DNA from: a virus | DNA length: 64,000 nt | Strand: one strand, 5' to 3' | IMG/VR virus record: IMGVR_UViG_3300032116_000125 | Coordinates: 10,257 to 74,256 of that record | In this document: positions 48,162 to 63,511 of the stretch, piece by piece | Position numbering within the stretch: position 1 is the first letter of the stretch | How the letters are laid out: each line of letters starts with the position of its first letter | The notes under the pieces: generated by a model | What the model saw: the letters and a program-made list of their open reading frames with translations, nothing else | What the model was told of the DNA's origin: nothing | Databases searched by the model: none | Position numbers and translations under genes: made by a program

Positions 48162-48192
48162 ACAGTGGTGTCCCATAATGGGACACCACTGT
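48162..48192. repeat. TGTCCCA-N3-TGGGACA palindrome, copy 1
   Basis: ACAGTGGTGTCCCA-TAA-TGGGACACCACTGT. Confidence 0.9.
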
Positions 48193-48203
48193 GAGGAGTA
48201 GGT

Positions 48204-49289
48204 ATGAAGGTAGGCGTAGCATCCGGTGACTGGGTTCACCCTGATCGTGTTGAGGACGGCAAAGAGAAATGGGGCGGGTCCGGATGGGCTCGCCTTGCCC
48301 AGTATCTGCCTCTCCTGACTGACATCCAGTTCATCACGGGCACTCTGATCTTTGACCCCAAGCATGGGTCATTTCAAATCCGTGCTGGCGATGAGGCAGT
48401 CCATGACATTGACATGGTGTGGATGCAACGACTCATGCACGCCGGGGCCTCCACCAACATGAAGATCGCCCGTTCAGCGGGGCAAATCATCATCAACGAC
48501 CTTGACGACTGGTACTGGGGTTTGTCGGCTAGCAACAACGCTTTTCGCAACACGCACCCCAAACACAGCCCCGACATCAACATCAACCATTACCGTGCGA
48601 TTCTCGCTCAGTCTGACTTGGTTACTGTAAGCACCCCATACCTTGCTGACCGCATTAAGTCATGGGTTACCCGTTGCCCGATCACAGTTGTGCCGAACTA
48701 TGTGGACATCAAAAGATTTCCGAGATACGAGCACACAGAAACGGACGTTCCGCTCGTTGGGTGGGCCGGTAGTACCGGACACCGTAGTAACGACCTTGAA
48801 ACCGTTGCTGGGGTTATCAAACCAATGGTTAATGCTGGGAACATCCGCTTCCACCACACGGGCGCACATCCGGCGATGAAGAGCGTTGCGTCGCTCGTCG
48901 GACTCCGAGACGATCAGGTCGCCACCCTTCCGCTGTCCGATCACGAGACGTACCCTTCCAACCTTAAGTTTGACGTTGGTGTTGTTCCGCTGAACAACAT
49001 TCCGTTCAACCGAGCCAAGTCTGACATCAAGGGTTTGGAGTACAGCGCCTGTGGTATTCCGTTTGTGGCACAGAACTTAGATGCGTACATCAACCTCCGC
49101 AACTCACTCGGTATCGGTCGTATTGCGAAGCGCCCCACGGATTGGATTCGCCACTTGAATGCACTACGCTCTCCGAGTGTTCGTCGTGAGGAAGGGGAAG
49201 CCTGTTATGAGGCAGTGCAACACCGAGACATCCACCATGGCGTGCAGACGTATCAGCAAATCTTTGACCATTTCAGGAGACCACAGTGA
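48204..49289 (+). CDS. GT-B glycosyltransferase (GT4-like)
   Basis: DLDD, VTVST, VPN, GWAGS..H and FN.AKS.IK.LEYSA.G.P motifs. Confidence 0.88.
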   Translation: MKVGVASGDWVHPDRVEDGKEKWGGSGWARLAQYLPLLTDIQFITGTLIFDPKHGSFQIRAGDEAVHDIDMVWMQRLMHAGASTNMKIARSAGQIIINDLDDWYWGLSASNNAFRNTHPKHSPDININHYRAILAQSDLVTVSTPYLADRIKSWVTRCPITVVPNYVDIKRFPRYEHTETDVPLVGWAGSTGHRSNDLETVAGVIKPMVNAGNIRFHHTGAHPAMKSVASLVGLRDDQVATLPLSDHETYPSNLKFDVGVVPLNNIPFNRAKSDIKGLEYSACGIPFVAQNLDAYINLRNSLGIGRIAKRPTDWIRHLNALRSPSVRREEGEACYEAVQHRDIHHGVQTYQQIFDHFRRPQ

Positions 49290-49687
49290 GCATTGAGCAA
49301 GTTGATCTACCTTCCCTCGCACACCCCGAGAAAGACCCCTCATGGAGGAAGTCTGCGTTGTGCCTCGGTGTCGGCCCCGGGCCGTTCTTCCGAGAGCGGG
49401 GGAGTATGGGTTACTCCGCTGAGCGCATTATGTGCGCCCAATGCTCAGTGCGAGAGAACTGCTTGGACTTCGCTCTTGAGAATCACATCCAACACGGTTT
49501 CTTCGGCGGGTTCTCAAAGGAGGACCGCCAGCGCATCAATGCTGGCGACATGGGCCGAGAGATCACGATGACTCAGATCGTCAAGGACCTCGCCAAGTTG
49601 AAGAAAGACAACCCCATCCGGGAAGCCTCACGCCTGTTCTTCAAGGATGAAGCCGAGATACACGAGATGCTTTCAGCCGGTAAGTGA
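49286..49687 (+). CDS. whiB: WhiB-family transcription factor
   Basis: W...A.C, C..C.V...C and HGFFGG motifs. Confidence 0.85.
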   Translation: MSIEQVDLPSLAHPEKDPSWRKSALCLGVGPGPFFRERGSMGYSAERIMCAQCSVRENCLDFALENHIQHGFFGGFSKEDRQRINAGDMGREITMTQIVKDLAKLKKDNPIREASRLFFKDEAEIHEMLSAGK

Positions 49688-49690
49688 AAC

Positions 49691-49745
49691 AAAAAAAGAC
49701 CCCCCTCCCGCAACCACAAGGGTTACGAGAGGGGGGTCTTTGTAT
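49691..49745. terminator. Bidirectional intrinsic terminator between the convergent arms
   Basis: A7-GACCCCCCTC...GAGGGGGGTC-TTTGTAT. Confidence 0.8.
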
Positions 49746-49748
49746 TTC

Positions 49749-49931
49749 TCAGAGCGACTCGCACGCCGTCAGCACGGCGAGCAGGTGTTGGCGGTCATCT
49801 TCGGAGAGGGTGTCAGTGTTGACCAAGTCGTAGGCGAGGACGACGAGAGCGTTGAGGTCCTCCTCAGCCCGAGTAAGACCAAGGGTAAGGGCTTCAAGGT
49901 ACGCCTGTCTCATGGCCTCAGTGTCAGTCAT
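49749..49931 (-). CDS. Hypothetical protein
   Basis: GGAG RBS before ATG 49931. Confidence 0.55.
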   Translation of the reverse strand: MTDTEAMRQAYLEALTLGLTRAEEDLNALVVLAYDLVNTDTLSEDDRQHLLAVLTACESL

Positions 49932-50202
49932 TGAAGTGCTCCTCCTCGTGCATCTCCAGCAGTACCTGTGAGAGCAACTCTTTTCCGCACCACACGCAGG
50001 TGTGCTCCACACCAGCGTCGTCGTTGGGGGTCACCATTTCAAAAGGCAAGCCTGCTTCAACGATTACCCGACGAGCACGCTTCTGTTTAAGGGCCTCTTT
50101 CTTCTTCCACTCCCCCACAGTTTGGACGGGAGTGGCCGTGTACTGCTTCTGTTGTTTCTCGTCTTTGCTGAACTTCTCGTACCCACCCTGCATGGAAGTC
50201 AT
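49924..50202 (-). CDS. C2H2 zinc-finger-like protein
   Basis: CVWCG...H...H. Confidence 0.6.
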   Translation of the reverse strand: MTSMQGGYEKFSKDEKQQKQYTATPVQTVGEWKKKEALKQKRARRVIVEAGLPFEMVTPNDDAGVEHTCVWCGKELLSQVLLEMHEEEHFND

Positions 50203-50615
50203 GCTACCCACTTGTACGGGAGGTCGGGGGATACCTCGGGCCACAGGGGGCCATAGTGGGTGGGCAGTTTCCGCACGAGGTTGGAGCGGTGCGAGAGGAT
50301 GACCTCGCTGTCGTACAAGAAAGCAGGGACGCTGTCAGACATCGTCCGGAGCCCGAGAGCCCGAACCTTGTCAGCCACGGTGTCCTTGTACCCAAGGCTG
50401 GTCCAGTGCTCGCACATGGCGAGCGTGTACTGGGCCAACACATCGGCGTACCCGACCCACATCTTGACGGCGGGATGGCTACGCCAGCCGGTGCTACGAC
50501 CGGTCAGGGTGTTGAGAATCTGAAGACCCTCCACACGTTGTTTGCCGAGGCGCTGGCGGTCCAGCACCACGGCGTTGGCACGGAAGTCTGCTCCGCAGGG
50601 AATAAATGTTTGCAT
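50199..50615 (-). CDS. Pyrimidine-dimer DNA glycosylase / DenV-like (MSMEG_6728-like)
   Basis: MQTF, LD..RLGKQRVE..QIL, HPAVKMW.GY and SHRSNL.RK motifs. Confidence 0.85.
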   Translation of the reverse strand: MQTFIPCGADFRANAVVLDRQRLGKQRVEGLQILNTLTGRSTGWRSHPAVKMWVGYADVLAQYTLAMCEHWTSLGYKDTVADKVRALGLRTMSDSVPAFLYDSEVILSHRSNLVRKLPTHYGPLWPEVSPDLPYKWVA

Positions 50616-50630
50616 GGTTCTCCTTGATGG

Positions 50631-50939: not shown

Positions 50940-51343
50940 GGGTTGATGCGGTACTCCTGATCGGGGCACAAGTAAGTCAGTGCCGAGGTAACAATGTTTA
51001 GTTCAAGGCGAATCTCTTCGGCGGTCTCGGCCCCCTCGTTGATGGAGTCCGTGATGGTGAAGGCTGTCATGCCGCCACGGGCGGCGATGCAGTACTGATT
51101 GCCCTGCAACAGGGCCTCAATCTGACTGTAGTAACCATCAAAGTTACCGAAGGACTGGGTGAGGCTGAAGAGGAACGCCATGTTCGGATCGGGAAACATG
51201 GTCGTGGTCGTGGTTGTTGTGGAAGTGGTTGTCGTCACCAATGGGTCCAGCACGGTGGTGTTGCTCGGCTGTGACACCGAGCAACCCACCACCACCATGG
51301 CGACTGGAAGAGCCATCAGGGCCCTCTTCATTGCATCATCCAC
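50936..51343 (-). CDS. DUF732-like lipoprotein
   Basis: Lipobox-like VVGC; poly-T linker; G..YC...G..LCP. Confidence 0.65.
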   Translation of the reverse strand: MDDAMKRALMALPVAMVVVGCSVSQPSNTTVLDPLVTTTTSTTTTTTTMFPDPNMAFLFSLTQSFGNFDGYYSQIEALLQGNQYCIAARGGMTAFTITDSINEGAETAEEIRLELNIVTSALTYLCPDQEYRINP

Positions 51344-51735
51344 AAGTACTCGGGGCAGAGGTTGTACACCGCCGAGGCCGTGACCGACACAAACAACGAC
51401 AGAATGCGGTCGTCACCGCCTGCCTGAGTGACAGCGATGACGGCGACCTCCTCCATGCTCGCCCCAGCGTCCAACGCTGAGCAGATGCCGTAGCCCGTCT
51501 CAATGAGGGTCTCGTCATCCACATACACCGACTGACCGGCAGTGGCGTGCACGCCCAGCACATACAGTTCCTCGTCCGAGAAAGACGGAGCCGGTGTGGC
51601 GATGGGTGCGTCCGTGGTCCTGACCACTTTGGTGGTCGTGTCGGGAGCGTCAGTGCGCTCAACGTACACGGTCTTGGTACCGCCACAGGCGGTGAGTGCG
51701 AGGGCCCCGAGGCCGATGATCAGTTTGGTCTTCAT
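51328..51735 (-). CDS. DUF732-like lipoprotein
   Basis: Lipobox LTAC; LIETGYGICSALDAG..LCPE. Confidence 0.75.
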   Translation of the reverse strand: MKTKLIIGLGALALTACGGTKTVYVERTDAPDTTTKVVRTTDAPIATPAPSFSDEELYVLGVHATAGQSVYVDDETLIETGYGICSALDAGASMEEVAVIAVTQAGGDDRILSLFVSVTASAVYNLCPEYLWMMQ

Positions 51736-53026: not shown

Positions 53027-53046
53027 GGTTCTCTTTCGGCGGTGGT

Positions 53047-53073
53047 GGGGGTGTCCCACGGTGGGACACCCCC
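53047..53073. repeat. TGTCCCA-N3-TGGGACA palindrome, copy 2
   Basis: GGGGGTGTCCCACGGTGGGACACCCCC. Confidence 0.95.
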
Positions 53074-53084
53074 TGATGTTGGTC

Positions 53085-53900
53085 TTACCACCGATGGGGG
53101 ATGTCGGGCATACCCTTGTTGACATCGTGCGTGCGGAGACGCTGTATGGGGGTGCCCACCGCAAAGTTCCGGTACACCGACAGGTAGGTACCGAGATGCT
53201 CAGCACGCCCCACACCACGGTCAATCCGGGGATGACGAACCAGCCAGTTGCGGAGGGCAAGACGAGGGTCGCCCACGTTCAGGTTCGCTCCCTCGCTGAC
53301 CGAGTTGAGGAACTCACGGATGCGAGAACCCCCATCCTTGTGTGTGAGGGCGCACAGGATGTACAGGGCACCCCACGCACTGAATGAACCCGCCAGTTGG
53401 CGATGGACCACACGGCAGTCCTTGAGGGCTTGCGTGATGAGTTCACGGTGCGCCTCGCAGAAGTTGATGATGTCCGTACGGCTGATGAGCGACATCAACT
53501 CCGTGTTGTTCGGGTTGATTCCAGCCTGCACTCCGATGACCAACTTGGCGATGGCTCCGACTTCCTTGGGGTCACCGAATCCGAGGCTACCCAGCGCGTC
53601 ACCGTTGGTACGGCTGAGTCCCGAATCCAAGACCTTGAAGACCTCGGGGTCAAGCCCATCCACCACGAAGAACTCCGCAGGGATACCGGCCTTGATGACG
53701 GCGAGCAGGCGGTGCTGTCCGTCCAACAGGGTGCCATCATTGGCGACCTTGATCGCCTCGCCGGTCACTCGCCATTGACCATCTTTGATCTGCTTGGCGT
53801 ACTGGTCCACACGGCGGGAGCGCACCGATCGGTTGATCGTGTTGCGCCCCAGCAGTTTCTCAGCATCCTTGGGCGTGATTACTTTGAGTGTTGCTTTCAT
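53085..53900 (-). CDS. ParB/Srx-like protein (DGQHR motif)
   Basis: ITP..A..LL..N..NR...G.W...GE.I...G.LLDGQHRL.A; GAGG RBS. Confidence 0.8.
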   Translation of the reverse strand: MKATLKVITPKDAEKLLGRNTINRSVRSRRVDQYAKQIKDGQWRVTGEAIKVANDGTLLDGQHRLLAVIKAGIPAEFFVVDGLDPEVFKVLDSGLSRTNGDALGSLGFGDPKEVGAIAKLVIGVQAGINPNNTELMSLISRTDIINFCEAHRELITQALKDCRVVHRQLAGSFSAWGALYILCALTHKDGGSRIREFLNSVSEGANLNVGDPRLALRNWLVRHPRIDRGVGRAEHLGTYLSVYRNFAVGTPIQRLRTHDVNKGMPDIPHRW

Positions 53901-53908
53901 GTTGTTCC

Positions 53909-54403
53909 TCACTTTGCTTGCTTGGACTTTGTGCCACGGGGGCGAACGGTGACACCGGCTTTGTGGAGCGTGTCGTACACAACCTTGGGGGTAACTCCCA
54001 AGTGCTTTGCGATAGTGACTCCGGATTCGCCCACGGTGTACCGCAGGACGATCATCTCGTTGCGCTGGCTGGTGACCGGCCTACGGCGCTCAACGCCGAG
54101 CGAGCGCAGGCTGGCGTAGACGGTCTCCACCGTCACTCCGAGCGCCTGAGCGATGCTGGGCCCTGACTCACCGCCCTTGTACCGGCGTGCGATTTCCTCA
54201 CGCCGTGCGACGGTCTTCGGGTCACTGGGGCGACCAGCCGACCGGCGCTCCACATGGATGCCAGCCTCACGGGCGTGCTTCAGGATGTGGACGATTTGGT
54301 TGTCACTGATTCCGAGCAACTGCTTGATCTCCGCTCGGGGCTTGCCTTCGTTGTGGAGGGCGACCACCTTGTGGGCCACTTCCACTCTCTTGAAGATGTT
54401 CAT
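53909..54403 (-). CDS. DNA-binding protein with three tandem HTH repeats
   Basis: G...AEI...LGIS, Y..GES..SIA..LGVT..TVY and Y..GES..TIA..LGVT..VVY. Confidence 0.8.
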   Translation of the reverse strand: MNIFKRVEVAHKVVALHNEGKPRAEIKQLLGISDNQIVHILKHAREAGIHVERRSAGRPSDPKTVARREEIARRYKGGESGPSIAQALGVTVETVYASLRSLGVERRRPVTSQRNEMIVLRYTVGESGVTIAKHLGVTPKVVYDTLHKAGVTVRPRGTKSKQAK

Positions 54404-54437
54404 CTTCTTCTCCTTGGTTGGTTTGGGGATGGGGGGT

Positions 54438-54476
54438 GCCTCCCCACCGGCATAGGGGGGAATCCGGTGGGGAGGC
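54438..54476. repeat. Hairpin CCTCCCCACC...GGTGGGGAGG (second family), copy A
   Basis: 13-bp arms, just after the AAA gene stop. Confidence 0.7.
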
Positions 54477-54482
54477 GGGTAC

Positions 54483-55751
54483 TCAGACCGTGCTATCCGG
54501 TGACACGGTCTGAGGAACGGAACCTTCCTTCTCTTCAGTGAGGAAGGTCTTGATGGACTTGTCCAAGATGATGGCTTCCACCTTGGTGCGCTCACGGTCG
54601 TCAAAGAACCCGCCGAAGACGCTGAGGGCGACATCCACACCGAGGGTGTCAATGTCCCGCTTCAGGTCCACCAGCAACTTCGTGCCGACCGGCGTGGTGA
54701 GCGAGCCAAGACGGCGAGCCTCACGGAGCGACTCACCCAACAGGACGAGCGCCGGTGAACCCAGCAACTTGGTCTCCACATCACGGTCGTATCCCCACGG
54801 GATGCGCTTCGTGAAGCGGTTCGCAAACGCCTCGTTCAGGGGCGAGGTGCCACGGTAACCCGGGGGGTTCATCGTGCCAATCACCCAGCAGTCCTTGTGC
54901 ATCTTGGTCTGCGCCATGAGGTACTCGCCCTCGGCATCCACCGCACGCTGACGGTTGACGAACGAGCGTCGGTCGTCGCACACGGGGTGGAGGGTTGAAG
55001 TAACCCGCTCGGGCATCATGTTGATCTCGTCCAAGTACAGGATGCACGCCACCTTGCTGGCGAGTTCCACGATGCCATTGAGGAACACGAGGCGCTCCAC
55101 GCCATCGGGGCCGATGTGTGCGACCGACTGACCAAAGAGGTCAAGGTCGGACACGCCAGCCGAACCGCTGAGGGTGAACACCGGCAGGGGCTTCGGGTAC
55201 CCGAGTTCCTTGGCGACGAGGACGGCGAGGACCTGAACGAGCAGGGTCTTGCCAGCCTGCGTGTCACCGACGAGGAGCACGTTGCTGGAGTAACCGTCAG
55301 AGTTACGGTCACGCCAGTAGTGCAACAGGAGGTCGGTGTCCTTGATGGAGCCGAACAACTTGCGGGACACATACTGCTTGACCAACTCGGGGTTGGGGCG
55401 GTAGGGGTCCAACCGGACATCCATTGCATCCACGATGGGCTTGACCTCAACCGGAGCGCTCGGGAAAGCCTGAGCAACCGGAACGGGTGCCACGACGCTC
55501 GGGGTCACGATGGTGCCGTCCGAGAGCAACTTGGGCAGGAGGTACACGACCTCACCGCCAATGCGCTGGACCTTGATGCACCGAGCGAACTGGGTGCCGT
55601 CCAACTCAATCGTGGTGGTCACAGCGGTCACTCGCTCACCGACTGGGATGCTGATGGGGGTGCCGTCAAGGAGTCGGGCGCTTACGGCCTTGGCTCGCTT
55701 GGCGAACACTTCGTACTCGCCTCCGATGCGGAGGTCACTGGTCTTTGCCAT
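54483..55751 (-). CDS. MoxR/CbbQ/CobS-like AAA+ ATPase
   Basis: GDTQAGKT, LYLDEIN, GTMN and LNEAF.NRF motifs. Confidence 0.88.
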   Translation of the reverse strand: MAKTSDLRIGGEYEVFAKRAKAVSARLLDGTPISIPVGERVTAVTTTIELDGTQFARCIKVQRIGGEVVYLLPKLLSDGTIVTPSVVAPVPVAQAFPSAPVEVKPIVDAMDVRLDPYRPNPELVKQYVSRKLFGSIKDTDLLLHYWRDRNSDGYSSNVLLVGDTQAGKTLLVQVLAVLVAKELGYPKPLPVFTLSGSAGVSDLDLFGQSVAHIGPDGVERLVFLNGIVELASKVACILYLDEINMMPERVTSTLHPVCDDRRSFVNRQRAVDAEGEYLMAQTKMHKDCWVIGTMNPPGYRGTSPLNEAFANRFTKRIPWGYDRDVETKLLGSPALVLLGESLREARRLGSLTTPVGTKLLVDLKRDIDTLGVDVALSVFGGFFDDRERTKVEAIILDKSIKTFLTEEKEGSVPQTVSPDSTV

Positions 55752-55803
55752 GGTGGTTCTGCTTTCTGTGGTTTGGTGGTTGGTGGTTTGGTTGGTGGAT
55801 GAG

Positions 55804-55820
55804 TGTCCCACGGTGGGACA
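55804..55820. repeat. TGTCCCA-N3-TGGGACA palindrome, copy 3 (core only)
   Basis: TGTCCCACGGTGGGACA. Confidence 0.9.
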
Positions 55821-55827
55821 GTTGCGA

Positions 55828-55862
55828 CCTCCCCACCCTCAGGGGTACTGAAGGTGGGGAGG
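55828..55862. repeat. Hairpin CCTCCCCACC...GGTGGGGAGG (second family), copy B
   Basis: 10-bp arms identical to copy A. Confidence 0.7.
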
Positions 55863-55897
55863 AGATAGTAGCGCCCCCCTTTGAGAGGCACAACTCG

Positions 55898-58099
55898 TTA
55901 CCCGAGAAAGTTGAGGAGGAATCCTCGGACGATCTCAGGCAGGTCGTCAAGGTTGGTGATGCTGGCAGTGGCGTGGAACCCCATCTCGGTGAGGTACTCG
56001 CCTCCCAACGAGACTCCCAAGAAGACTCGCCCCTCTCGGTATTGCTGTTCCACTTGGGAGACGACACTGTGGTGCCAGTGACCATCGGTCAGCACTACCA
56101 CGAGGTGGTACTTCTCGCCTTCTCGTTGGGTGTCCAGCACCCGCAGAGCCTCGGTGGGGTTCGTACCACCACCGGCATTGAGTGCCAGTGGCGTGACGAA
56201 CTTGTCCTCTCGGCGGTACAACTCACGAGAGTTAGCATTGAACGTGACCACGGTGCAGGCGATGTCAACTTGGTCGCACGCCGTCTTCACGGCGTACGCC
56301 ACCTGACTCAACTTGGACTCGTGTTCGTGCATTGAACCCGAGATGTCCAGCAGGAGGCTCACGGCGATGTCCAACCCGGTGTTGCCCTCGGATGAGAGCG
56401 TGCGCCGGTAGTTGTGATCGCCTGCGGTGCGGGTGCGATAACGAAACGCATTGACCACACCGGTGCGGTGACCCTCCTCCCACACGGGCTGTGCCGAACT
56501 GACCGCCGAGTCAAAGGACCGTGAGAGTCGTGAAGCGACCTCTTCAGCCTGAGTCAGCGCCTCGCCGGTCACCACGCCACCCTTACCTTGCTCGGGTTCA
56601 AGAAGCGTAGTGCCGTCCTTGTTGAGGTCCACATTGATTGACCTGATGGTTTCTTCAATGTCAGAGTCTTGCGACAACTCGCTGGCGACTTCGTCCAGCG
56701 CCTCCTGAATCGCCTCGTCCACCGAAGTGTCCTTGGTCTGATCACTGGCTCCGTCACCAGCGCCATTGGAGGAGTCATCCTCATCCTCTTCGTCGCCGTT
56801 GGCCTCGTCGTCCGAGGGGGCAGACTCGGCGGAGGAAGCACCACTGCCGGTGTCCTCGTCCTCCTCCTCGTCCTCGTCATCAGAGTTACCGTCAGAGTTA
56901 CCGTCAGACGCTGAGGTGTCCTCGTTCTCGTCCTTGGTCTCTTCCGGCTCGTCCGACTTCTTGGACTTCTTTCCCTCGTCCTTGCCCTCGTCCTTGGAGT
57001 CCTTCTCCGACACGCCGATGGTCACTTGGTCCTGCTCCTGCTCCTGCGTGGAGTCAGCAGACCGTGACGGGTCGTACTTCGGCTTGCCCCAGTTCGGGTG
57101 GGTGTCCATCGTGGGGGCTGTCACGCCGAGGCGGTTTAGCAACCAGTAGAACTTCAGCGTCGCCAGCAGGAGACCCGCCTCGGTGGTTGCCGAGCAGTAC
57201 TCTCGGACGATTCCCTCGGCCTCAGCGACCACGGGTTCCGTGAGTTCAGCGACGGCGAGGCTCCGAATCTTGGAGCGCACCGTGAGGGGCAGGTAGCGAC
57301 GATTGATGACGAGGAAGTACTGGAGTGCTTCTTTCCGTTCATCATGTTGCTGGGTCGGGCCTGTGAACCAATCGGCCTTGATCATGAAGCGCAACACCAG
57401 TTTGGTGAGGTACCGAGCGATGTACGGGGACTCGTGGACGAGCGCCGTCTCCATGCGCTGGTCTTCCAAGATGTTCCACGCACGTTGGATTGCGAAGACC
57501 TCATGGCGTGCGGATGCATGATCCGGGAACCCAGCCTCAGGATGCTCAGCCCACCACTCGTTGGTCGCCTCATCCAGCAGAGTACGGACTGGGGTCGTGA
57601 AGAGGATGTGCCCCAACTCGTGGTACTGGAGCGCCTTGATGTCCGAGATGAGTTCCACCAAGTGGTGGGTGTCGGTGGTGAACACCGGCGTTGCCTCGTC
57701 ATTAAGGTTGCGCCACAGCGGGTACGACACGTTGATCTGCGTCATGTCAGTGCGCCCACTGACACCGACCGCCGTGTACTGAGCGGATGCCCACTGCTGG
57801 GGAGTCCATGCGGGGTCACGGCGACCGACTTCCTTGGGCTCAAGAAAGACGGGGACGGCGATTCCGAACGACGCATTCACCGCACGACAAACGGCGAGCA
57901 GGTTGCGGAGCAAAGCGACCTGCGCCGTGTGCTCCAGCGCCTGCCTGTGAGTGGCTTCCGAGCGACGCACAGCCGAGATTGCGCTGTCAAACTCACGCTC
58001 AGCCTGCTTGCCTGCTTCACGGGACATACGACGACGCTCATTCTGAAGTCGGCGCTTTGCTTCGGGGGAAAGGTTGATCTTGTTCACTTGTACCTCCAA
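55898..58099 (-). CDS. VWA-domain protein with N-terminal HExxH metallopeptidase-like domain (CobT-like)
   Basis: HELGH, NILED.R.E, acidic linker, and MIDAS elements DISGS, GGT and LTDG. Confidence 0.88.
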   Translation of the reverse strand: MEVQVNKINLSPEAKRRLQNERRRMSREAGKQAEREFDSAISAVRRSEATHRQALEHTAQVALLRNLLAVCRAVNASFGIAVPVFLEPKEVGRRDPAWTPQQWASAQYTAVGVSGRTDMTQINVSYPLWRNLNDEATPVFTTDTHHLVELISDIKALQYHELGHILFTTPVRTLLDEATNEWWAEHPEAGFPDHASARHEVFAIQRAWNILEDQRMETALVHESPYIARYLTKLVLRFMIKADWFTGPTQQHDERKEALQYFLVINRRYLPLTVRSKIRSLAVAELTEPVVAEAEGIVREYCSATTEAGLLLATLKFYWLLNRLGVTAPTMDTHPNWGKPKYDPSRSADSTQEQEQDQVTIGVSEKDSKDEGKDEGKKSKKSDEPEETKDENEDTSASDGNSDGNSDDEDEEEDEDTGSGASSAESAPSDDEANGDEEDEDDSSNGAGDGASDQTKDTSVDEAIQEALDEVASELSQDSDIEETIRSINVDLNKDGTTLLEPEQGKGGVVTGEALTQAEEVASRLSRSFDSAVSSAQPVWEEGHRTGVVNAFRYRTRTAGDHNYRRTLSSEGNTGLDIAVSLLLDISGSMHEHESKLSQVAYAVKTACDQVDIACTVVTFNANSRELYRREDKFVTPLALNAGGGTNPTEALRVLDTQREGEKYHLVVVLTDGHWHHSVVSQVEQQYREGRVFLGVSLGGEYLTEMGFHATASITNLDDLPEIVRGFLLNFLG

Positions 58100-58305
58100 G
58101 TTTGGTTGTTCTGAACTATGACGGGGTGCCCACCGTACTCAGTGGGTAGTTGACAGTTTCCGTAACCGTCAAAGAAAGGGTCCCAACCCTCAGGGGACCA
58201 TGTCCCATCGGGGTGGAAAGTGATGTCGCACTCGGACTGCTCGTTGGAGCCTGCACAGGTGTACAGACCGAGCAACACGGCGATCAGTATGACGGCGCTC
58301 TTCAT
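58084..58305 (-). CDS. Small secreted or membrane protein
   Basis: Hydrophobic N-terminus MKSAVILIAVLLGL. Confidence 0.55.
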   Translation of the reverse strand: MKSAVILIAVLLGLYTCAGSNEQSECDITFHPDGTWSPEGWDPFFDGYGNCQLPTEYGGHPVIVQNNQTWRYK

Positions 58306-58427
58306 CGGTTGTTTGCCTTCCATTCGCAGTACGCATCGTGGTTGTCTTCGTCGTTGGGGTCCAACCCATTCTCCTGACACCATTCGGCGTAGGTGGGGTT
58401 GGGCTTCATGATCTTGATGCTCGCCAT
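58302..58427 (-). CDS. 41-aa hypothetical protein
   Basis: GAGGAG RBS; coupled. Confidence 0.5.
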   Translation of the reverse strand: MASIKIMKPNPTYAEWCQENGLDPNDEDNHDAYCEWKANNR

Positions 58428-58428
58428 T

Positions 58429-58668
58429 TCAGTACTCCTCTTCGTCGTCGTCGTCGCTGGTGTCGGGGGCACAGCAGGTGAAGCAGATTCGTACGGCATC
58501 CTTGCCGTCAGACATGGACACCCAAATGATGGACTCGTCGTCGTTGGTCGGGGACCCGCACTGGTGGCAGGTCATGTAGCACTTCTCGCACACTCGGGCA
58601 TCACCGAGGTACAGGCCGTCGCCGTTGGGGACTTCTTGGTTGCAGTGGTCGCATTGGTATTCGGACAT
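58429..58668 (-). CDS. Multi-CxxC zinc-finger protein
   Basis: CDHC, CEKC, CHQC and CFTC; AAGGAG RBS. Confidence 0.65.
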   Translation of the reverse strand: MSEYQCDHCNQEVPNGDGLYLGDARVCEKCYMTCHQCGSPTNDDESIIWVSMSDGKDAVRICFTCCAPDTSDDDDEEEY

Positions 58669-58696
58669 GGTTGCTCCTTGGTGATTGTGATGGATT

Positions 58697-58723
58697 GGGG
58701 GTGTCCCACGGTGGGACACCCCC
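58697..58723. repeat. TGTCCCA-N3-TGGGACA palindrome, copy 4
   Basis: GGGGGTGTCCCACGGTGGGACACCCCC. Confidence 0.95.
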
Positions 58724-58729
58724 GGGGTG

Positions 58730-59209
58730 TTACTTGCTGGGTGGGTTTCGTCGGACGTACTCACGAACGAGTGCGTCCTTGAGGGCCGAGTCAAACTCTC
58801 CCCACAGGTGGTCATCGTTGGCGATGGTGCGACTGATCTGCTCCAGCGCCTCGTCGGAGGCTTCTTCGGCCAGCCACTTCCACCAGTCGTACTGCTCCTT
58901 GGGCAGGCCCCAGTCGTCAGCGACGAACGGGTTGTCGCCCTCGTCTTCGGTGTAGTGCGCCCACCCGAGTCGCTCCCGTGCTTCGTAGCGGAGAGCCTCG
59001 GGGGAGAACACGATGGTGTTGTGCACCGACGAGTCAAACGGGAGACCGACGATGATGGGCGTGCCGTTCTCGTCAGCGAAGTCAAGCGCCTGCGGTTCGT
59101 CAAAGTAGTCGTCGGTTGACGAGAAGATTTCGTCGGGGATGTCTACGATGACGCACTCCGAGACGGCGATGATCGTGCCGGTGCCTTGGTGAACGATGTA
59201 CTGGGTCAT
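58730..59209 (-). CDS. Acidic hypothetical protein
   Basis: AAGGAG RBS. Confidence 0.65.
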   Translation of the reverse strand: MTQYIVHQGTGTIIAVSECVIVDIPDEIFSSTDDYFDEPQALDFADENGTPIIVGLPFDSSVHNTIVFSPEALRYEARERLGWAHYTEDEGDNPFVADDWGLPKEQYDWWKWLAEEASDEALEQISRTIANDDHLWGEFDSALKDALVREYVRRNPPSK

Positions 59210-59445
59210 GCTTGCTCCTTGATGATGAGGGTGTCCAACGGGTAAACGCTGTCCACCGATTGATCTGTGATGAGAGCGCCGTGGGCGCTCAGGCTCCGAA
59301 CGTCATGCGGGTCGGCGCTGACCGACACGGCGGGTGCGTAGTCCTCCAGCCACTCAGCGACATCTCGTTCGTTGGTGTCGCTGGGCACGCTGACGTTGAC
59401 CGTGACGACGAGGTCGTAGGTCTTGGTTAGTTGGATTACTTTCAT
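59206..59445 (-). CDS. Hypothetical protein
   Basis: GAGG RBS; coupled. Confidence 0.6.
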   Translation of the reverse strand: MKVIQLTKTYDLVVTVNVSVPSDTNERDVAEWLEDYAPAVSVSADPHDVRSLSAHGALITDQSVDSVYPLDTLIIKEQA

Positions 59446-59457
59446 GTTTGTTCCTCC

Positions 59458-59742
59458 TCAGAAACTCTTGCCCGTGAGGTACAGGGCGAGATTGATGATG
59501 CGGGTGGCTACTGAGCCGGGGGACTCATAATCCAGCAGTTCGTCCACTTGGATGTCGTACGGGAGTTCTTCAACGCTGTTGCCGACCTCGTGAGCCTCGT
59601 CCAGTGCCATGACGATGTCCTCGTCATGCTGTGACCTGTCCCAGTCCACGAGCCACACCTCCAGTGCGACCCGTAGTGCTTGGGGGCTGTACGGCTGTTT
59701 CTCAGCGATGGCTTGCTCGGCGTACTTGTTGATGATGCTCAT
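59458..59742 (-). CDS. Hypothetical protein
   Basis: GAGG RBS before ATG 59742. Confidence 0.6.
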   Translation of the reverse strand: MSIINKYAEQAIAEKQPYSPQALRVALEVWLVDWDRSQHDEDIVMALDEAHEVGNSVEELPYDIQVDELLDYESPGSVATRIINLALYLTGKSF

Positions 59743-59753
59743 GTTGGTTCCTC

Positions 59754-60155
59754 TCACTTGTTCTCGTAGTAGCACTCTTCACAGCGGGGGTCGCTGTAGT
59801 TGGGGTCGCCAAGGATGTCCTGCCTCTCGTATTCGTTGAGGCAGTCCACGCAGATGATGTACCCATCCTCGGTCGGGTTCCACGGGTTGTCGTCCGTGAT
59901 GGTGAACGCCCCCAAGTGGAGGGCATCCACGATCTCGTAGACATCGGCAACCGATGAGCCTCGGAAGGTCACTCCCTCGGGGAGGATCACCTCGGCATCA
60001 GTGTCGCCACCCCTGATCGCCGTGATCGCTTCCACGGCGACGGGCACCATGATCTCGGGGACGGGCGGGTAGCAGTTGCTGGTGAGGTGCCAGCGCACCT
60101 GCTGTTCCAGCGGTAGGTCAGAGTTGGCAATGCCAAGAGCGGTTTGGAATCCCAT
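59754..60155 (-). CDS. Hypothetical protein (WHL..N.YPPVP) with C-terminal CxxC pair
   Basis: AAGGAG RBS after an AACC leader. Confidence 0.7.
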   Translation of the reverse strand: MGFQTALGIANSDLPLEQQVRWHLTSNCYPPVPEIMVPVAVEAITAIRGGDTDAEVILPEGVTFRGSSVADVYEIVDALHLGAFTITDDNPWNPTEDGYIICVDCLNEYERQDILGDPNYSDPRCEECYYENK

Positions 60156-60203
60156 GATTGTTTCTCCTTGTTGGTTGGTTTGGTTGGTTTGATGGTTGTC
60201 CTG

Positions 60204-60224
60204 ACTGTCCCACCGTGGGACAGT
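60204..60224. repeat. TGTCCCA-N3-TGGGACA palindrome, copy 5
   Basis: ACTGTCCCACCGTGGGACAGT. Confidence 0.9.
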
Positions 60225-60267
60225 GGGGGACGAGCACCCACCACAGATGCTCGCCCCCCGCCTTGGG

Positions 60268-61164
60268 TCAGGAGAGATTGCTGGCGCAGTCGGGCCCGAT
60301 GCCGAGCGCCTTGGACTCCTTGTCCTTGAGCGCACGGGAGCACACCCCACAGATTGTGAAGTGCTTGCCGAACGCCTGCGCCATGGCGACGAGGTCTCCG
60401 TTGACGAGCGTTTCCAACAAAGCAATCGCTTTGCGTGGCGACACATTCTCGGTGGCGTTGAAGTGCTGACCGCCCTTCACCTTGGCGATACCGGAGCGGG
60501 ACACTCGGTAGTACGAGTACCCGTCCAGTTCGTCGGCGTTGGGAACAGCGAGACCCACGCTCAGGTTCTCGTTGTTACCCTTGGACAGTGCCACCGCCAC
60601 CTGCTGGATGAGGTTGTCCAACTGGTCGTCGCTGGCATCGCCAGCAGTGCGGTGGGCGCACACCTCGCACAGCGGGAACCACGCACCACGCCGGTTGTAG
60701 GCGATGTACTGGTCACGCTTGCCACACACCGAACACTTGCTCGGGAAGCGTGACGGGATGACCCGCTCCGCATCGGCGGGGACGGCGGGGTACTTGTCAG
60801 CCCAGTCGGGCTTGGTGGTGATGCCGATGAGCGCCACCTCTTTGCGAGCGCTGTCCACGAGCGTCTTGAGGCGGTCAATGACACCGCTGATCTCGCTCTT
60901 GGTGAACTCGGTGAGGTGGGTCTCCAGCGCCTCTACCACCTGCACGGTGTTGAGGACGAACTCGGTCTCACCGACACGCTTGACGACTGCCTTGTCCAGT
61001 TCGGACAGCGTGTGGGACAGCAGAGCGTCAGCCTTGCGGGTCTGCTCGGGCGTGCCCTGCCAGTTGACGGCGGGGTCTTCGGTGTCCACGACGATCTCGT
61101 TCAACTGCTTCCACAGGGCGAGGGCGAAGTTGACTTGCTTGTCGGTTGCGATGTCGCTGTACAT
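60268..61164 (-). CDS. DUF6011-like Zn-finger protein
   Basis: ATDKQ N-terminus; C-terminal CGVCSRAL.D.ES...GIGPDC. Confidence 0.75.
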   Translation of the reverse strand: MYSDIATDKQVNFALALWKQLNEIVVDTEDPAVNWQGTPEQTRKADALLSHTLSELDKAVVKRVGETEFVLNTVQVVEALETHLTEFTKSEISGVIDRLKTLVDSARKEVALIGITTKPDWADKYPAVPADAERVIPSRFPSKCSVCGKRDQYIAYNRRGAWFPLCEVCAHRTAGDASDDQLDNLIQQVAVALSKGNNENLSVGLAVPNADELDGYSYYRVSRSGIAKVKGGQHFNATENVSPRKAIALLETLVNGDLVAMAQAFGKHFTICGVCSRALKDKESKALGIGPDCASNLS

Positions 61165-61215
61165 GGTGGTCTCCTGATTGGTTTGGTGGTTGGTGGTGGT
61201 TGGTTTAACTGGTGT

Positions 61216-61242
61216 GGGGGTGTCCCATCGTGGGACACCCCC
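61216..61242. repeat. TGTCCCA-N3-TGGGACA palindrome, copy 6
   Basis: GGGGGTGTCCCATCGTGGGACACCCCC. Confidence 0.95.
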
Positions 61243-61248
61243 GAGTGG

Positions 61249-62853
61249 TCAGCGGTACGAGTCCAGCAACTCGTTGGCGACCGACCCACTGACGAGCGCA
61301 TCAGAGCCACCGTCCACGGCGGTACCGATGACGGCCTCCTTGCGCTCCAGCATCCCCCACAGGCGTTCGTCCACGGACGAGTCGCCGTCCATGGCACCGA
61401 GGAGGATGTTGTTGCTCGTCTTGCGGGTCTGCGTGAAGCGGTCAATGCGAGCCTCGGCCTGCTTCAGTGCGCTGGGTGTCCACGGCAGTTCCACCGTGAT
61501 CATGTTGGCGCACGAGGTGAGCGTGAGACCCTCGCTGACGGCGACGACGTTGCCGATGAGGACTCGTGCCCGACCGGACTGGAAAGCGTCAACCGCTTCC
61601 TGCTTCTGACGCTGGGTGTCGTCACCCGTGACCGAGACGATCTCGGAGGGCTTGACACCCTCGCTGATGAGCGTCTCACGGATGCGCCAAGCGACCTCCT
61701 TGTGGGCGGTCACGAGGAACACCTGCTCGTCGTTGTCCAGCAGTTCGCTGGTGCAGGACACGGCGGTCTCAACCTTGGCGAGTCCGGCGATCTGCCGGAG
61801 TTGACCGAGGAGGACGAGCGCCTCAGCGTTGGCGTTGATGCTGTACTCGTCGTCGCCACGCTTCTCTTGGAGGAACTCCTCCAAGTCCCGCACCGCACGC
61901 TTGTAGTCGGTGAGGTGCTTGCCCGTGATGGTGACGGGCGTGAGCCACCGGCTGAAGTCGGGCAGTGTGATGACCTCGGAGCGCTTGCGCCGAATCATCA
62001 CCCAGCGACGCAGGAGTTCGTTCAACTCCCGCAGGTTGCTCGCACCCGTGAAGTCCATGCGCCCACGGAAACCGGGGCGAGGGTCGCAGTAGCGGTGCTT
62101 GAACTTCGCACTGCCACCGAAGCGGGGCAGGTGACCGAGGATGTTGAGGATGGGCACCAACTCCACGGGGCGGTTGGTCAGCGGTGTGCCGGTCAGGCAC
62201 AGCACGACCGCCTCGGGGGTCATGGCCTTGGCGATGGCGGTGACACCCTTGGTGCGGAGCGCATCGGGGGTCTTGCTCCGGTGCGCCTCGTCCTGCACGA
62301 GACCACGCCACGGGTGCTGGGCGAGGATGTTCGTGGGCATGGGGCGCTGTTGCCCACGGGGGAGCAGGCGGTTGGTCTTCTCCCACTTCGCCAGCACATC
62401 CTTGGGGGCGAGCGCCCAGTCACCCACGACCGAGTCGGGGATGATCACGATGTCGGCATCGGGCACCGCCGTGGGGGTCTTGCCACCGATGCGAGCGACC
62501 GTGCGGTTGGGGAGCGCCGTCTTGCACGAGCGCTCCCAGTTGATCACGAGCGCCGGTGGGCAGACGATGAGTGCGGGGTAGGCATCGCACTCGTCCAGCG
62601 CCAGCAAGGCGCTGTAGGTCTTGCCAACGCCCATGTCGTCAGCGATCAGCAGACGAGTGTGCCCAGCCTGCACCGCCTCAGCGATGACCAACTGGTGGGG
62701 CATCGGCTCAATGGAGAGCCGGTGGTGCACGATGCCCTCGGGAGCGATGCGCCCCGAGAACTCAGCGATGCCCGTGACGACACGGGACTTCGCCTCAGCG
62801 ATGATCGCCTCGGCGCTGGTGGCTCCCTTGCGAGCCTTGTCGGCTAGTGCCAT
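61249..62853 (-). CDS. SNF2-family helicase (SMARCAL1/HARP-like)
   Basis: ADDMGVGKT, DEAH, LTGTP, EGLTLT and QAEARIDR motifs. Confidence 0.92.
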   Translation of the reverse strand: MALADKARKGATSAEAIIAEAKSRVVTGIAEFSGRIAPEGIVHHRLSIEPMPHQLVIAEAVQAGHTRLLIADDMGVGKTYSALLALDECDAYPALIVCPPALVINWERSCKTALPNRTVARIGGKTPTAVPDADIVIIPDSVVGDWALAPKDVLAKWEKTNRLLPRGQQRPMPTNILAQHPWRGLVQDEAHRSKTPDALRTKGVTAIAKAMTPEAVVLCLTGTPLTNRPVELVPILNILGHLPRFGGSAKFKHRYCDPRPGFRGRMDFTGASNLRELNELLRRWVMIRRKRSEVITLPDFSRWLTPVTITGKHLTDYKRAVRDLEEFLQEKRGDDEYSINANAEALVLLGQLRQIAGLAKVETAVSCTSELLDNDEQVFLVTAHKEVAWRIRETLISEGVKPSEIVSVTGDDTQRQKQEAVDAFQSGRARVLIGNVVAVSEGLTLTSCANMITVELPWTPSALKQAEARIDRFTQTRKTSNNILLGAMDGDSSVDERLWGMLERKEAVIGTAVDGGSDALVSGSVANELLDSYR

Positions 62854-62897
62854 GGTCTCTCCTTGTGTTGGTTGGTGGTGGTGGTGACGGGTCAGTA

Positions 62898-63080
62898 TTA
62901 AGTGTCGGGTTGGCTTTCGGCGCTGAAGACGTTGATCGCATCAATGGCTGAGTCAATCAACTCAATGAGTTCACGCTCCTCTGAGTCCTCGGATGACCAC
63001 CACCTTCGGTAGTCCCCCAATGCGGTGAGGATGATGTCTCCATGATCCTGAATGATCTGTTGGGCGGTGGGCTTGCTCAT
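62898..63080 (-). CDS. Hypothetical protein
   Basis: AAGGAG RBS before ATG 63080. Confidence 0.6.
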   Translation of the reverse strand: MSKPTAQQIIQDHGDIILTALGDYRRWWSSEDSEERELIELIDSAIDAINVFSAESQPDT

Positions 63081-63120
63081 GCTGGTTCTCCTTGGTGGTG
63101 ACGGTGGGGGTGGACTTGGT

Positions 63121-63149
63121 GAGGGGTGTCCCACGGTGGGACACCCCTC
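63121..63149. repeat. TGTCCCA-N3-TGGGACA palindrome, copy 7
   Basis: GAGGGGTGTCCCACGGTGGGACACCCCTC. Confidence 0.95.
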
Positions 63150-63155
63150 GTTGAG

Positions 63156-63428
63156 TCAGGCTACTGCCTGAGCCTCGGGGTTGACGGGATGGCGCTGGTC
63201 GTAGCGCCACACTCGTGCGCTGTCCCGCCCGATACGGGCGAGCACACGGTTGGTGCCCCAGCGGGTGATTCCACGGTGGTAGTGGGTCTGCCCCCACGGC
63301 GTGGGGGGCAGGTTGCTGTCGGCGCAGACGAGGCGGGTGTACAACCGCCCGTAGTACCGGAAGCGCCCGTGCTTGACGATGGTGACCTTGTAGGTCAGCG
63401 CCCAGTCTTTCTCCAGTTTGGTGGACAT
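63156..63428 (-). CDS. Basic hypothetical protein
   Basis: AAGGAG RBS before ATG 63428. Confidence 0.6.
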   Translation of the reverse strand: MSTKLEKDWALTYKVTIVKHGRFRYYGRLYTRLVCADSNLPPTPWGQTHYHRGITRWGTNRVLARIGRDSARVWRYDQRHPVNPEAQAVA

Positions 63429-63482
63429 GGTTGGTTCTCCTTGTGTTGGTTTGATGGTTGGTTGGTTGGTTGGTTGGTCTGA

Positions 63483-63511
63483 CGGGGGTGTCCCACGATG
63501 GGACACCCCCG
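63483..63511. repeat. TGTCCCA-N3-TGGGACA palindrome, copy 8
   Basis: CGGGGGTGTCCCACGATGGGACACCCCCG. Confidence 0.95.

Follow-up and report, generated by a model that had tools for sequence, protein, structure and literature searches.

The 64,000-nt window analyzed here, which comes from an uncultured freshwater phage with a G+C content of 55%, carries a short palindrome repeated between its genes, and this locus raises the question of what kind of element the palindrome is and which protein reads it. An earlier note on this DNA had likened the repeats to the parS sites of chromosome partitioning, read by neighboring ParB-like and triple-HTH proteins, and had offered RNA hairpins or recombination sites delimiting gene cassettes as alternatives. 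An exact search for TGTCCCA-N3-TGGGACA returned the eight copies that it had listed, all of them intergenic, and the coordinates given there proved to be the starts of the extended hairpins. No copy arose in 100 dinucleotide-preserving shuffles, a search allowing two mismatches detected no degenerate copies beyond the eight exact ones, and no further copies were found elsewhere in the whole 74,256-nt contig.

Copy 1 (48162-48192, plus strand; core 48169-48185, centre TAA, 7-bp complementary flank) lies between plus-strand genes, 9 nt after a stop codon, and adjoins the GAGGAG RBS of a glycosyltransferase gene starting at 48204; an orthologous copy is present in the relatives G002 and G003. The remaining seven copies are on the minus strand. 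Copy 2 (53047-53073; core 53052-53068, G5/C5 flanks), located 11 nt past the stop codon of the ParB-like gene, is orthologous to the site at 82060 of G003, which there directly follows the HTH gene. Copy 3 (55804-55820), upstream of an AAA_5 ATPase gene, is a bare core with no complementary flanks, and an independent G/C hairpin (approximately 55828-55862, minus strand), with an orthologous hairpin in G002 and G003, separates it from the stop codon of a VWA gene. Copy 4 (58697-58723; core 58702-58718, G5/C5 flanks) begins 6 nt after a stop codon. Copy 5 (60204-60224; core 60206-60222) has a flank of only 2 bp and is likewise separated from the stop codon of a DUF6011 gene by an independent G/C hairpin (approximately 60225-60259, minus strand), in which one pair reads G-U as mRNA but A-C on the opposite strand. 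Copy 6 (61216-61242; core 61221-61237, centre TCG, G5/C5 flanks), 6 nt past the stop codon of an SNF2 helicase gene, is orthologous to sites at 87363 in G002 and 74184 in G003, where the flanks are GGGGAG/CTCCCC. Copy 7 (63121-63149; core 63127-63143, flanks GAGGGG/CCCCTC) and copy 8 (63483-63511; core 63489-63505, centre CGA, 6-bp flank) begin 6 and 5 nt after stop codons, respectively.

These positions bear out the statements of the earlier note that six copies lie 5-11 nt past a stop codon and that the flanks are complementary in seven of the eight (7, 5, 0, 5, 2, 5, 6, and 6 bp). As it also stated, every copy precedes the RBS of the next gene: each is followed by a C/A-rich leader, a Shine-Dalgarno-like sequence (weak, GAAAG, in two cases), and a start codon (48204 on the plus strand; 53026, 55751, 58668, 60155, 61164, 63080, and 63428 on the minus strand). 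For most copies, the palindrome is the tip of a G/C hairpin with a 12-14-bp stem and a stability of -26 to -33 kcal/mol, for which no Rfam match was obtained. A G/C stem is present, but a U-tract is lacking after every copy in the sense orientation, and the palindromes are not intrinsic (Rho-independent) terminators, as had been concluded before. A canonical bidirectional intrinsic terminator, with a 20-bp stem and a U-tract, is located at 49695-49741 and closes the leftward operon.

Positions 8 and 10 of the palindrome are usually complementary as well, and the element, judged by its sequence, is really an 8-N1-8 dyad with arms TGTCCC/GGGACA around a variable 5-nt centre; the form in the window is TGTCCCA-(C/T)-S-(G/A)-TGGGACA, and that of the family is TGTCCC-N5-GGGACA. 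The arms are invariant, with no one-mismatch copy in any genome examined, across phages with 40-60% protein identity and a phage group with a G+C content of 35%. Four independent centre types, ACSGT, GASTC, GTWAC, and AASTT, continue the dyad through positions 8 and 10, and the orientation of the middle base varies among orthologous sites and inside populations, as at position 60214 of copy 5, where a C/G polymorphism was observed in four metagenome runs. A dyad extending through positions 8 and 10 together with a flipping middle base argues for a symmetric DNA site and would be unexpected for an RNA loop. The relatives G003 and G007 are 91-97.5% identical along the arm that holds the repeats, and the nine orthologous sites compared between them differ only in the central 5 nt, a concerted switch of centre. 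The relative L232 has an N6 centre. In a second phage group with the same arms (G005 and others), the site abuts the RBS, and at 23 of the 27 scorable sites the coding strand has G as the centre base.

The exact 17-mer is also dispersed on bacterial chromosomes, among them those of some Paracoccaceae, with 71 copies in Tabrizicola, 71 in Citreimonas salinaria DSM 26880, 28 in Neotabrizicola, 29 in a Gemmobacter MAG, and 68 in an alphaproteobacterial MAG, whereas a reversed-pattern control gave 0-1 matches in those genomes. Window copies 6 and 8 have minor centres (ATCGT and ACGAT) that occur in bacterial chromosomes as well, and another Paracoccaceae genome (G119) carries eight copies with the GASTC centre of G007. 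The bacterial copies (28-71 per genome) are evenly spread and have a stop codon 0-17 nt upstream, with convergent genes as the commonest context. At 52 bacterial sites, the (W)ATCAAnnnnTTR consensus for IHF is found at exactly 18-19 nt, followed by TTnAn-N6/7-TTAAC; this exact spacing argues for assembly at the DNA level. REP elements are 20-40-nt imperfect palindromes of enterobacteria such as E. coli, and RIP/RIB elements consist of a REP plus an IHF site. The bacterial repeats resemble them as short extragenic palindromes in tens of copies per chromosome, placed just after stop codons and often between convergent genes, coupled to an IHF consensus, and foldable in mRNA; they appear to be a BIME-like element undescribed in Paracoccaceae. 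In contrast to REP/BIME elements, the repeat has invariant arms and forms a near-perfect dyad of 17 bp, no RAYT (Y1 HUH transposase, PF01797) was found in five motif-carrying genomes, and the 17-mer is shared with phages, in which the site density is raised about 40-fold (seven copies in 10.5 kb within one long leftward operon). The IHF and TTAAC parts are confined to the bacterial copies and the G/C stem extensions to the phage copies, so that the function may differ between phage and bacterium.

The outer flanks covary. Stem extension by at least 4 bp was seen for 48% of 33 distinct flank pairs, compared to 10% for mismatched partners, metagenome run X17 shows a joint insertion of G and C at copy 4 (positions 58696 and 58718) that lengthens the stem, and G-U pairs occur in the mRNA sense only. 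This covariation gives some support to the RNA hairpins suggested in the earlier note, and the sites could then be purely RNA-level elements, that is, intercistronic hairpins acting as 3'-end stabilizers, U-tract-less attenuators or processing signals, for which an RNA-binding protein might be the reader. The compensating insertion in a natural population, the confinement of G-U pairs to the sense strand, the start of stable hairpins just after stop codons, the change from a three-base to a four-base loop in L232 and HMO-2011, and the RBS-abutting sites of the second group with their biased centre orientation are all consistent with such a role, and the separate hairpins that accompany the bare cores point to an RNA component. 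However, the arms, unlike the flanks, never show compensatory change, positions 8 and 10 stay complementary though unable to pair in the hairpin, the loop is CGG or CCG interchangeably, bare cores persist next to independent hairpins, and the bacterial copies keep a fixed distance from an IHF site; together with the lack of an Rfam match, these observations make an explanation at the RNA level alone rather unlikely. The other alternative of the earlier note, in which the sites are recombination joints and homologous or site-specific recombination shuffles the promoterless gene cassettes that they bound, likewise receives some support from palindrome-bounded insertions and deletions. At a position occupied by one palindrome in G001 and G003, relative G004 carries a palindrome-gene-palindrome arrangement, cassettes lying between palindromes are replaced among relatives, and several other breakpoints coincide with a palindrome plus its leader. 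A 78-aa gene (62898-63134) lies in different cassettes in this phage and in G003 and is deleted in run X17, and alternative sequences abut copies 2, 5, and 7 in metagenome data (at copy 7 in run X17, with a neighboring deletion of 62880-63108). The centre shared by the sites of a genome would serve as the crossover core, and uniformity within a genome with differences between genomes is the behavior of such cores. Precedents are integron attC sites and the PeSLs of T4-type phages (PMC2839356, PMC4122927), stem-loops that likewise recur between genes, border variable small genes and mark positions at which close relatives differ by insertions and deletions. Unlike the loosely conserved stems of PeSLs, the arms here are invariant, and whereas a PeSL carries an early sigma-70 promoter, no sigma-70-like promoter was found in 47.5-64 kb against 3.4 expected, which places the palindromes outside the PeSL class. 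They are also not attC or other site-specific recombination sites with a cognate enzyme, as no tyrosine or serine recombinase was found in complete genomes of this phage group and searches for PF00589 and PF00239 in this phage, G002, G003, and G007 were negative. Many insertions and deletions in the arm lie off the palindromes, centres are mixed in G007, assemblies break at repeats and thereby inflate the apparent junctions, and the bacterial copies with their IHF partner are left unexplained, so that we regard recombination as an improbable sole account of the sites.

A centromere-like or regulon system of the ParB/parS type would have the neighboring ParB-like protein, or a host ParB-family protein, load on the sites. 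The half-site TGTCCCAC matches parS at 7 of 8 half-site positions in the comparison made by the earlier note, and a ParB/Srx-like gene with the DGQHR sequence (53085-53912, minus strand; 275 aa, phrog_5931) does abut copy 2, as reported there. In seven contigs, which are Bdellovibrionota or deltaproteobacterial, the 17-mer either follows parB at 0-77 nt or falls within that gene, about 200 nt from its 3' end, and adjoins parA and a replication-initiator-like gene, with canonical parS absent nearby; in Bdellovibrionota it is probably a non-canonical 17-bp parS. The parS likeness therefore holds for the look of a protein-binding site and for the position at parB in Bdellovibrionota, but not for a link to a cognate phage gene. 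The ParB-like gene occurs only in this phage and in G006 and is missing from six motif-bearing relatives, which are genomes or fragments (three of the six at least 98% complete) with 6-12 copies in G001-G004 and G007 and 11 in G005; located between the HTH gene and copy 2, it is an accessory insertion outside the conserved system. Its product had no match in Pfam, NCBIfam or the PDB and no homologue in candidate host genomes, and no ParB_N domain (PF02195) was detected in eight phage records at E <= 0.1. The phage site is not parS in the strict sense, being 17 bp long with an extra central base rather than the 16-bp palindrome TGTTNCAC-GTGNAACA; the centres GASTC and GTWAC abolish the CAC/GTG part of the resemblance, and the sites are spread over cistron junctions. 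Canonical parS lies beside parB in three motif-bearing Paracoccaceae that are candidate hosts, the stretch read for G010 and G119 showed none, and a second ParB is missing from G010, G013, and G119. A ParB/parS system operating on the phage sites is accordingly very improbable. Judged by the refuting condition set in the earlier note, a motif distribution independent of the ParB-like and 3xHTH genes, the proposed link to both genes fails. The adjacent 3xHTH gene (53909-54403, minus strand; 164 aa), which was also located correctly in the earlier note, encodes a candidate phage-side reader of the invariant arms. The protein matches HTH_23, HTH_29, and HTH_7 in Pfam, and its structure model consists of three flexibly linked 3-helix HTH bundles, with the CRISPR repeat-binding protein Cbp2 (2lvs) as the best fold match. 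Next come the paired domains of Mos1, Tc3, and Pax, which are also binders of repeat DNA. Orthologues are kept in the same arm in all relatives covering the region, with a palindrome directly after the gene, and the family is narrow (20 clusters, all at least 54% identical), every member with readable surrounding DNA coming from a palindrome-bearing phage. The protein might read the sites as archaeal Cbp1 reads CRISPR repeats (PMC3315313, PMC10883916), coating the repeats and tuning transcription through the long unit by read-through, roadblock or timing, and a beads-on-a-string reader would tolerate the N5-to-N6 change of L232. Tandem HTH units and repeats that punctuate a long transcription unit are shared with the Cbp1/Cbp2 system of Sulfolobales (PMC3315313, PMC3597662, PMC10883916), but the latter is archaeal and binds direct repeats, and the phage protein, a putative binder, scores 36.8 bits against the Cbp1 family (NF040595) cut-off of 140, so that the likeness is one of analogy only; a weak match to the IS630 DNA-binding domain is also far below the curated cut-off. 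The link between this protein and the motif, as drawn in the earlier note, stands for co-occurrence within the lineage, which is not independent evidence, and fails in the second phage group (G005 and others), which has the same arms, and in five motif-bearing bacterial genomes (8-71 copies), from all of which the gene is absent. No residue was fixed for GASTC against ACSGT centres. We consider the 3xHTH protein a doubtful though conceivable reader, and it may act alongside a host reader.

We give roughly an even chance to the explanation that a symmetric protein, encoded in the cellular and not the phage genome, recognizes the palindromes as double-stranded DNA, and that these sites are nested in RNA hairpins and serve also as recombination joints. 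No candidate binding protein common to the two phage groups was found, which points to a cellular reader. The putative cellular protein would bind each cistron junction on DNA, the surrounding stem would fold in mRNA and protect or attenuate the 3' end of each cistron, and the identical sites would double as joints at which gene cassettes are gained, lost or swapped. The phage thus probably borrows a DNA site recognized by its host rather than running a ParB/parS system of its own, and some Paracoccaceae are probable hosts, an assignment made solely from the shared motif and the freshwater habitat. Several points count against a cellular reader: the N6 centre of L232 would be poorly tolerated by a rigid dimer, the G bias of the second-group centre is suggestive of a role tied to one strand, the true reader in this lineage could be the 3xHTH protein, and only 3 of the 121 sampled family genomes are rich in the motif. 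A more speculative extension, to which we attach little probability, is that the 17-mer is a portable, centromere-like "address" with a strain-specific central code, with which phages stud their early operon and which they rewrite at every site when they change host. The reader of such an address would be a cellular DNA-loading protein, either of the ParB family, as suggested by the parAB-adjacent position in Bdellovibrionota, or of another clamp-like or nucleoid-associated kind, and the phage copies of the current host's code would recruit or evade the host system.

A close phage counterpart is found in the Cluster O mycobacteriophages, which carry more than 30 copies, one third of them inside genes, of the 17-bp repeat TGTTCGG-N3-CCGAACA; the function of this repeat is unexplained, and its authors predicted a dimeric DNA-binding protein (PMC4351075). 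Both elements are 7-N3-7 dyads of the form TGT...ACA, repeated within one phage genome, with invariant arms and a free centre without orientation; in both, copy density is higher in the leftward arm, and genes for a ParB-like domain protein and an AAA ATPase are present. The arm sequence is different, however, and the copies described here are fewer and all intergenic (6-12 and mostly intergenic in the relatives). Insertions and deletions in Cluster O phages were not associated with the repeats, and the study reported no counterpart of the repeat on a host chromosome (PMC4351075). Repeated phage dyads of this type have had no explanation for a decade. Here, such an element has the same sequence as a repeat on the chromosomes of likely hosts, and near-identical phages differ from each other only in the dyad centre, one such centre being found in another genome of the family. 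This provides a handle on function, since a cultured bacterium such as C. salinaria DSM 26880 can serve as the source from which to isolate the putative binding protein, and the repeat may offer a sequence-based marker for pairing uncultured phages with their hosts.

An exact search recovered eight copies of the palindrome TGTCCCA-N3-TGGGACA in the window, compared to none in 100 shuffles; allowing up to two mismatches added no copy in the window, and the remainder of the 74,256-nt IMG/VR viral record, of which the window covers bases 10257-74256 and which has an estimated completeness of 79%, contained no further one. The positions recorded in the earlier note (48162, 53047, 55804, 58697, 60204, 61216, 63121 and 63483) are the starts of extended hairpins, in which complementary flanks of 7, 5, 0, 5, 2, 5, 6 and 6 bp enclose copies 1 to 8, respectively. 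As had been described, six of the eight hairpins start 5-11 nt 3' of a stop codon, and a Shine-Dalgarno sequence and a start codon lie downstream of all eight. Read in the mRNA sense, the order is stop codon, G-rich flank, core, C-rich flank, C/A-rich leader, AAGGAG and ATG. The leaders between the palindromes and the ribosome-binding sites (window 53027-63480) span 26-62 nt and are rich in C and A, with little G or U and with ACCAACC repeats; they would form unstructured, Rho-loading-like or RNase-accessible segments. From about 50.2 kb onwards, all the way to the end of the window, genes run leftward, and the products of this arm include an SNF2 helicase, a DUF6011 protein, an AAA_5 ATPase, a VWA protein, a protein with three helix-turn-helix units (3xHTH) and a ParB-like protein. 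No sigma-70-like promoter was found in 47.5-64 kb, where 3.4 were expected, and this leftward stretch ends at a canonical, bidirectional intrinsic terminator with a 20-bp stem (49695-49741). The promoter-free stretch and its terminator indicate that the palindromes punctuate one long operon. The palindromes themselves are not standard terminators, in agreement with the earlier note, the canonical one standing separately.

The phage of the window is a myovirus with sheath and baseplate genes, and it encodes DnaB, primase, PolA, UvsX, a Cas4-like exonuclease, a DpdA-like protein and a glycosyltransferase; no RNA polymerase gene was present among the ORFs scanned, and Rfam and tRNA scans gave no match. 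The TGT/DpdA-like protein (45459-46877, plus strand; phrog_887, queuine tRNA-ribosyltransferase) is a hint that the DNA may be modified with 7-deazaguanine. Metagenome runs containing the phage are mostly from fresh water, and some are labelled as fungus or aquaculture metagenomes. Syntenic relatives with proteins 40-95% identical to those of the window were found in IMG/VR and JGI metagenomes (G001-G004, G006-G009 and L229-L233). Each carries 6-12 motif copies in the same arm, and single-mismatch copies were never seen. The arm had no megablast match among GenBank phages, and no cultured phage with several motif copies was found. In the relative G003, the palindrome array begins at the divergent region heading the arm; upstream of this region, in a stretch missing from the window's contig, are four tandem paralogous genes of 243-303 aa (G003 63307-66474, equivalent to L135:3307-6474, minus strand), with an MTRYSR start in three of the four proteins. 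A second motif, GATAGTGA(A/C)A, occurs at a constant 9-11 nt 3' of the extended-hairpin base at about one third of the sites in G001-G004 and L232 (for example, L135:11509, 12532 and 14216), with a C/A-rich leader and then a ribosome-binding site downstream. This motif, which is absent in the window's arm, may represent a promoter element, either -10-like or factor-specific.

The flanks and the arms of the palindrome are under different constraints. The stem is extended by at least 4 bp in 48% of 33 distinct flank pairs, compared to 10% with mismatched partners, and flank pairs covary (for example, GGGGAG/CTCCCC, GATGGGG/CCCCATC and ACAGTGG/CCACTGT). Population data from one metagenome run (X17) contain a co-insertion of G and C that lengthens the stem of copy 4, some flank pairs are G-U in the mRNA sense only, and bare cores have a separate G/C hairpin alongside. 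Taken together, these four observations indicate that a stable post-stop hairpin is selected, and that this selection probably acts at the RNA level; sense and antisense folding energies showed no overall asymmetry. A requirement for an RNA hairpin does not describe the core, where the arms are invariant and even compensating changes are never seen, positions 8 and 10 are complementary though unable to pair within the hairpin, and the middle base alternates from one orthologous site to another as well as inside populations (four runs have either C or G at position 60214). These features of the core point to recognition as double-stranded DNA, specific for the sequence and with two-fold symmetry.

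The five-base centre, which is mainly ACSGT in the window, switches in concert among the relatives. The motif takes the form TGTCCC-GTWAC-GGGACA in G006, L229 and L230, the centre is GASTC with some GACAC in G007 and L233, and L232 has six bases, GTAAAC. Between G003 and G007 the arm of the genome is 91-97.5% identical and the flanks are identical, whereas the central five bases differ at all nine orthologous sites compared. We searched for a protein tracking the centre (the window phage versus G006, G003 and G007; G007 versus G003), and none follows the centre type: in these comparisons the deviating genes are confined to those for the tail and a few small or accessory ORFs without known function. 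No 3xHTH residue is fixed for GASTC versus ACSGT, and Pfam gave no match for the remaining candidates. The 186-aa gene directly 5' of copy 1 (47592-48152, plus strand) was rejected as such a candidate, being a lipoprotein-like transglycosylase with a lipobox-like signal, a Pro/Thr-rich linker and a transglycosylase-like C-terminus; an unrelated gene takes its place in G002 and G003. Restriction avoidance was likewise rejected, as the centre pentamers show no genome-wide depletion.

The earlier note had proposed that the ParB-like DGQHR protein (53085-53912, minus strand) and the 3xHTH protein (53909-54403, minus strand) load on the sites. The ParB-like gene is present only in the window phage and G006 (63% identity) and is absent in G001-G005 and G007, among them three genomes with 98-100% completeness, and a ParB_N domain was not found in any phage examined. 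The ParB link, for which the note had itself proposed co-occurrence as the test, is thus refuted by the motif-bearing relatives that lack the gene, and the suggested ParB mechanism lacks support. Every relative covering the region has the 3xHTH gene, with a palindrome directly 3' of it. A link between this protein and the sites is possible, not required. The structure model contains three 3-helix HTH units joined by flexible linkers (pLDDT 80, pTM 0.36). Among its fold matches the CRISPR repeat-binding protein Cbp2 ranks first, ahead of the Mos1, Tc3 and Pax paired domains, and family searches match the IS630 DNA-binding domain and Cbp1 weakly. The family comprises just 20 clusters, all at least 54% identical, and the identical protein is also encoded on an 89.7-kb contig. 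A role of the 3xHTH protein as phage-side reader of the invariant arms is plausible. No homologues of either protein were found in the motif-bearing bacterial genomes searched.

A second group of phages carries a related motif, TGTCCCAA-S-TTGGGACA, which occurs in 80 stretches of IMG/VR. These are marine contigs of 35% G+C resembling phage HMO-2011, and G005, complete at 55 kb, has 11 copies without stem extension in the early rightward region, near early promoters and abutting ribosome-binding sites. The two groups have in common only the DNA polymerase, a 404-aa protein and two small basic proteins (24347-24592 and 24592-24786, minus strand; phrog_14910 and phrog_17747), the latter 55-63% identical between groups. 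The small basic proteins were rejected as a shared binder, since cultured phages encoding them lack the motif (HMO-2011, CRP-9, MEP401, HTVC033P and S-CRES1). Proteins 45-79% identical to them occur in marine HMO-2011-type phages, roseophages, pelagiphages and phages of Methylophilales and Synechococcus, and most other window genes have no detectable similarity to the phages sharing them; comparison of the sequences suggests that the pair, beside a Dps-like gene, is a recently exchanged module. The Puniceispirillum phage HMO-2011 (L236) has its own analogue, AGTCCG-N4-CGGACT, in three copies at 60, 1261 and 1926. The two copies read in context follow a conserved early promoter-like sequence and lie just 5' of a ribosome-binding site, which is the layout of the second phage group.

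The motif is also found in bacterial chromosomes. In a scan of 185,579 species genomes, Rhodobacterales dominate among the matches listed. Counted over whole genomes, Tabrizicola and Citreimonas salinaria DSM 26880 have 71 copies each, an alphaproteobacterial MAG 68, a Gemmobacter MAG 29 and Neotabrizicola 28. These copies are distributed evenly, control patterns occur 0-1 times per genome, and the minor centres also occur in window copies 6 and 8. The bacterial sites follow a stop codon at 0-17 nt, usually between convergent genes, and an IHF consensus exactly 18-19 nt away is followed by TTnAn-N6/7-TTAAC, an arrangement that makes the element a BIME/RIP-like composite. This composite (loci L237-L356; Tabrizicola, Citreimonas, Gemmobacter and others) is about 80 bp long, extragenic, present 28-71 times per chromosome and patchy in the family; its TTnAn-N6/7-TTAAC part resembles a CtrA box. 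It is apparently undescribed. No Rfam family was found for it, searches of the literature with the motif strings yielded nothing relevant, and the motif-bearing bacterial genomes searched contained no RAYT transposase. Of 121 Paracoccaceae genomes sampled, only three have many copies. One of the three, the bacterial genome G119, carries the GASTC variant eight times, which is the centre type of phages G007 and L233. Among 400 sampled Alphaproteobacteria none searched had many R-W-S-W-Y centres, a pattern that omits ACSGT by design.

The resemblance to parS raised in the earlier note has a counterpart in other bacteria. In seven Bdellovibrionota/deltaproteobacterial MAG contigs (L239, L279, L284, L287, L304, L311 and L313), the 17-mer is found 0-77 nt downstream of parB or within that gene, about 200 nt from its 3' end, and adjoins parA and a replication-initiator-like gene; these contigs contain no canonical parS, and the 17-mer probably serves them as a non-canonical parS of 17 bp. 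Among the Paracoccaceae, by contrast, three have a canonical parS beside parB, and the bacterial genomes G010, G013 and G119 have a single ParB each. Recombination at the palindromes would account for another set of observations: G004 has palindrome-gene-palindrome where relatives have a single palindrome, gene cassettes are replaced between palindromes among relatives, and the 78-aa gene beside copy 7 is mobile and deleted in one population. No recombinase genes were found in the phage genomes searched. Natural variants in metagenome contigs at 51325-51728, 58306-58461 and 62880-63108 have a whole small gene deleted or replaced.

The palindrome is a real, strongly selected and not ordinary element. 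On the best reading, it is a putative host-type DNA site that a cellular protein would recognise on the phage DNA, nested inside RNA hairpins, and it would double as a recombination joint.
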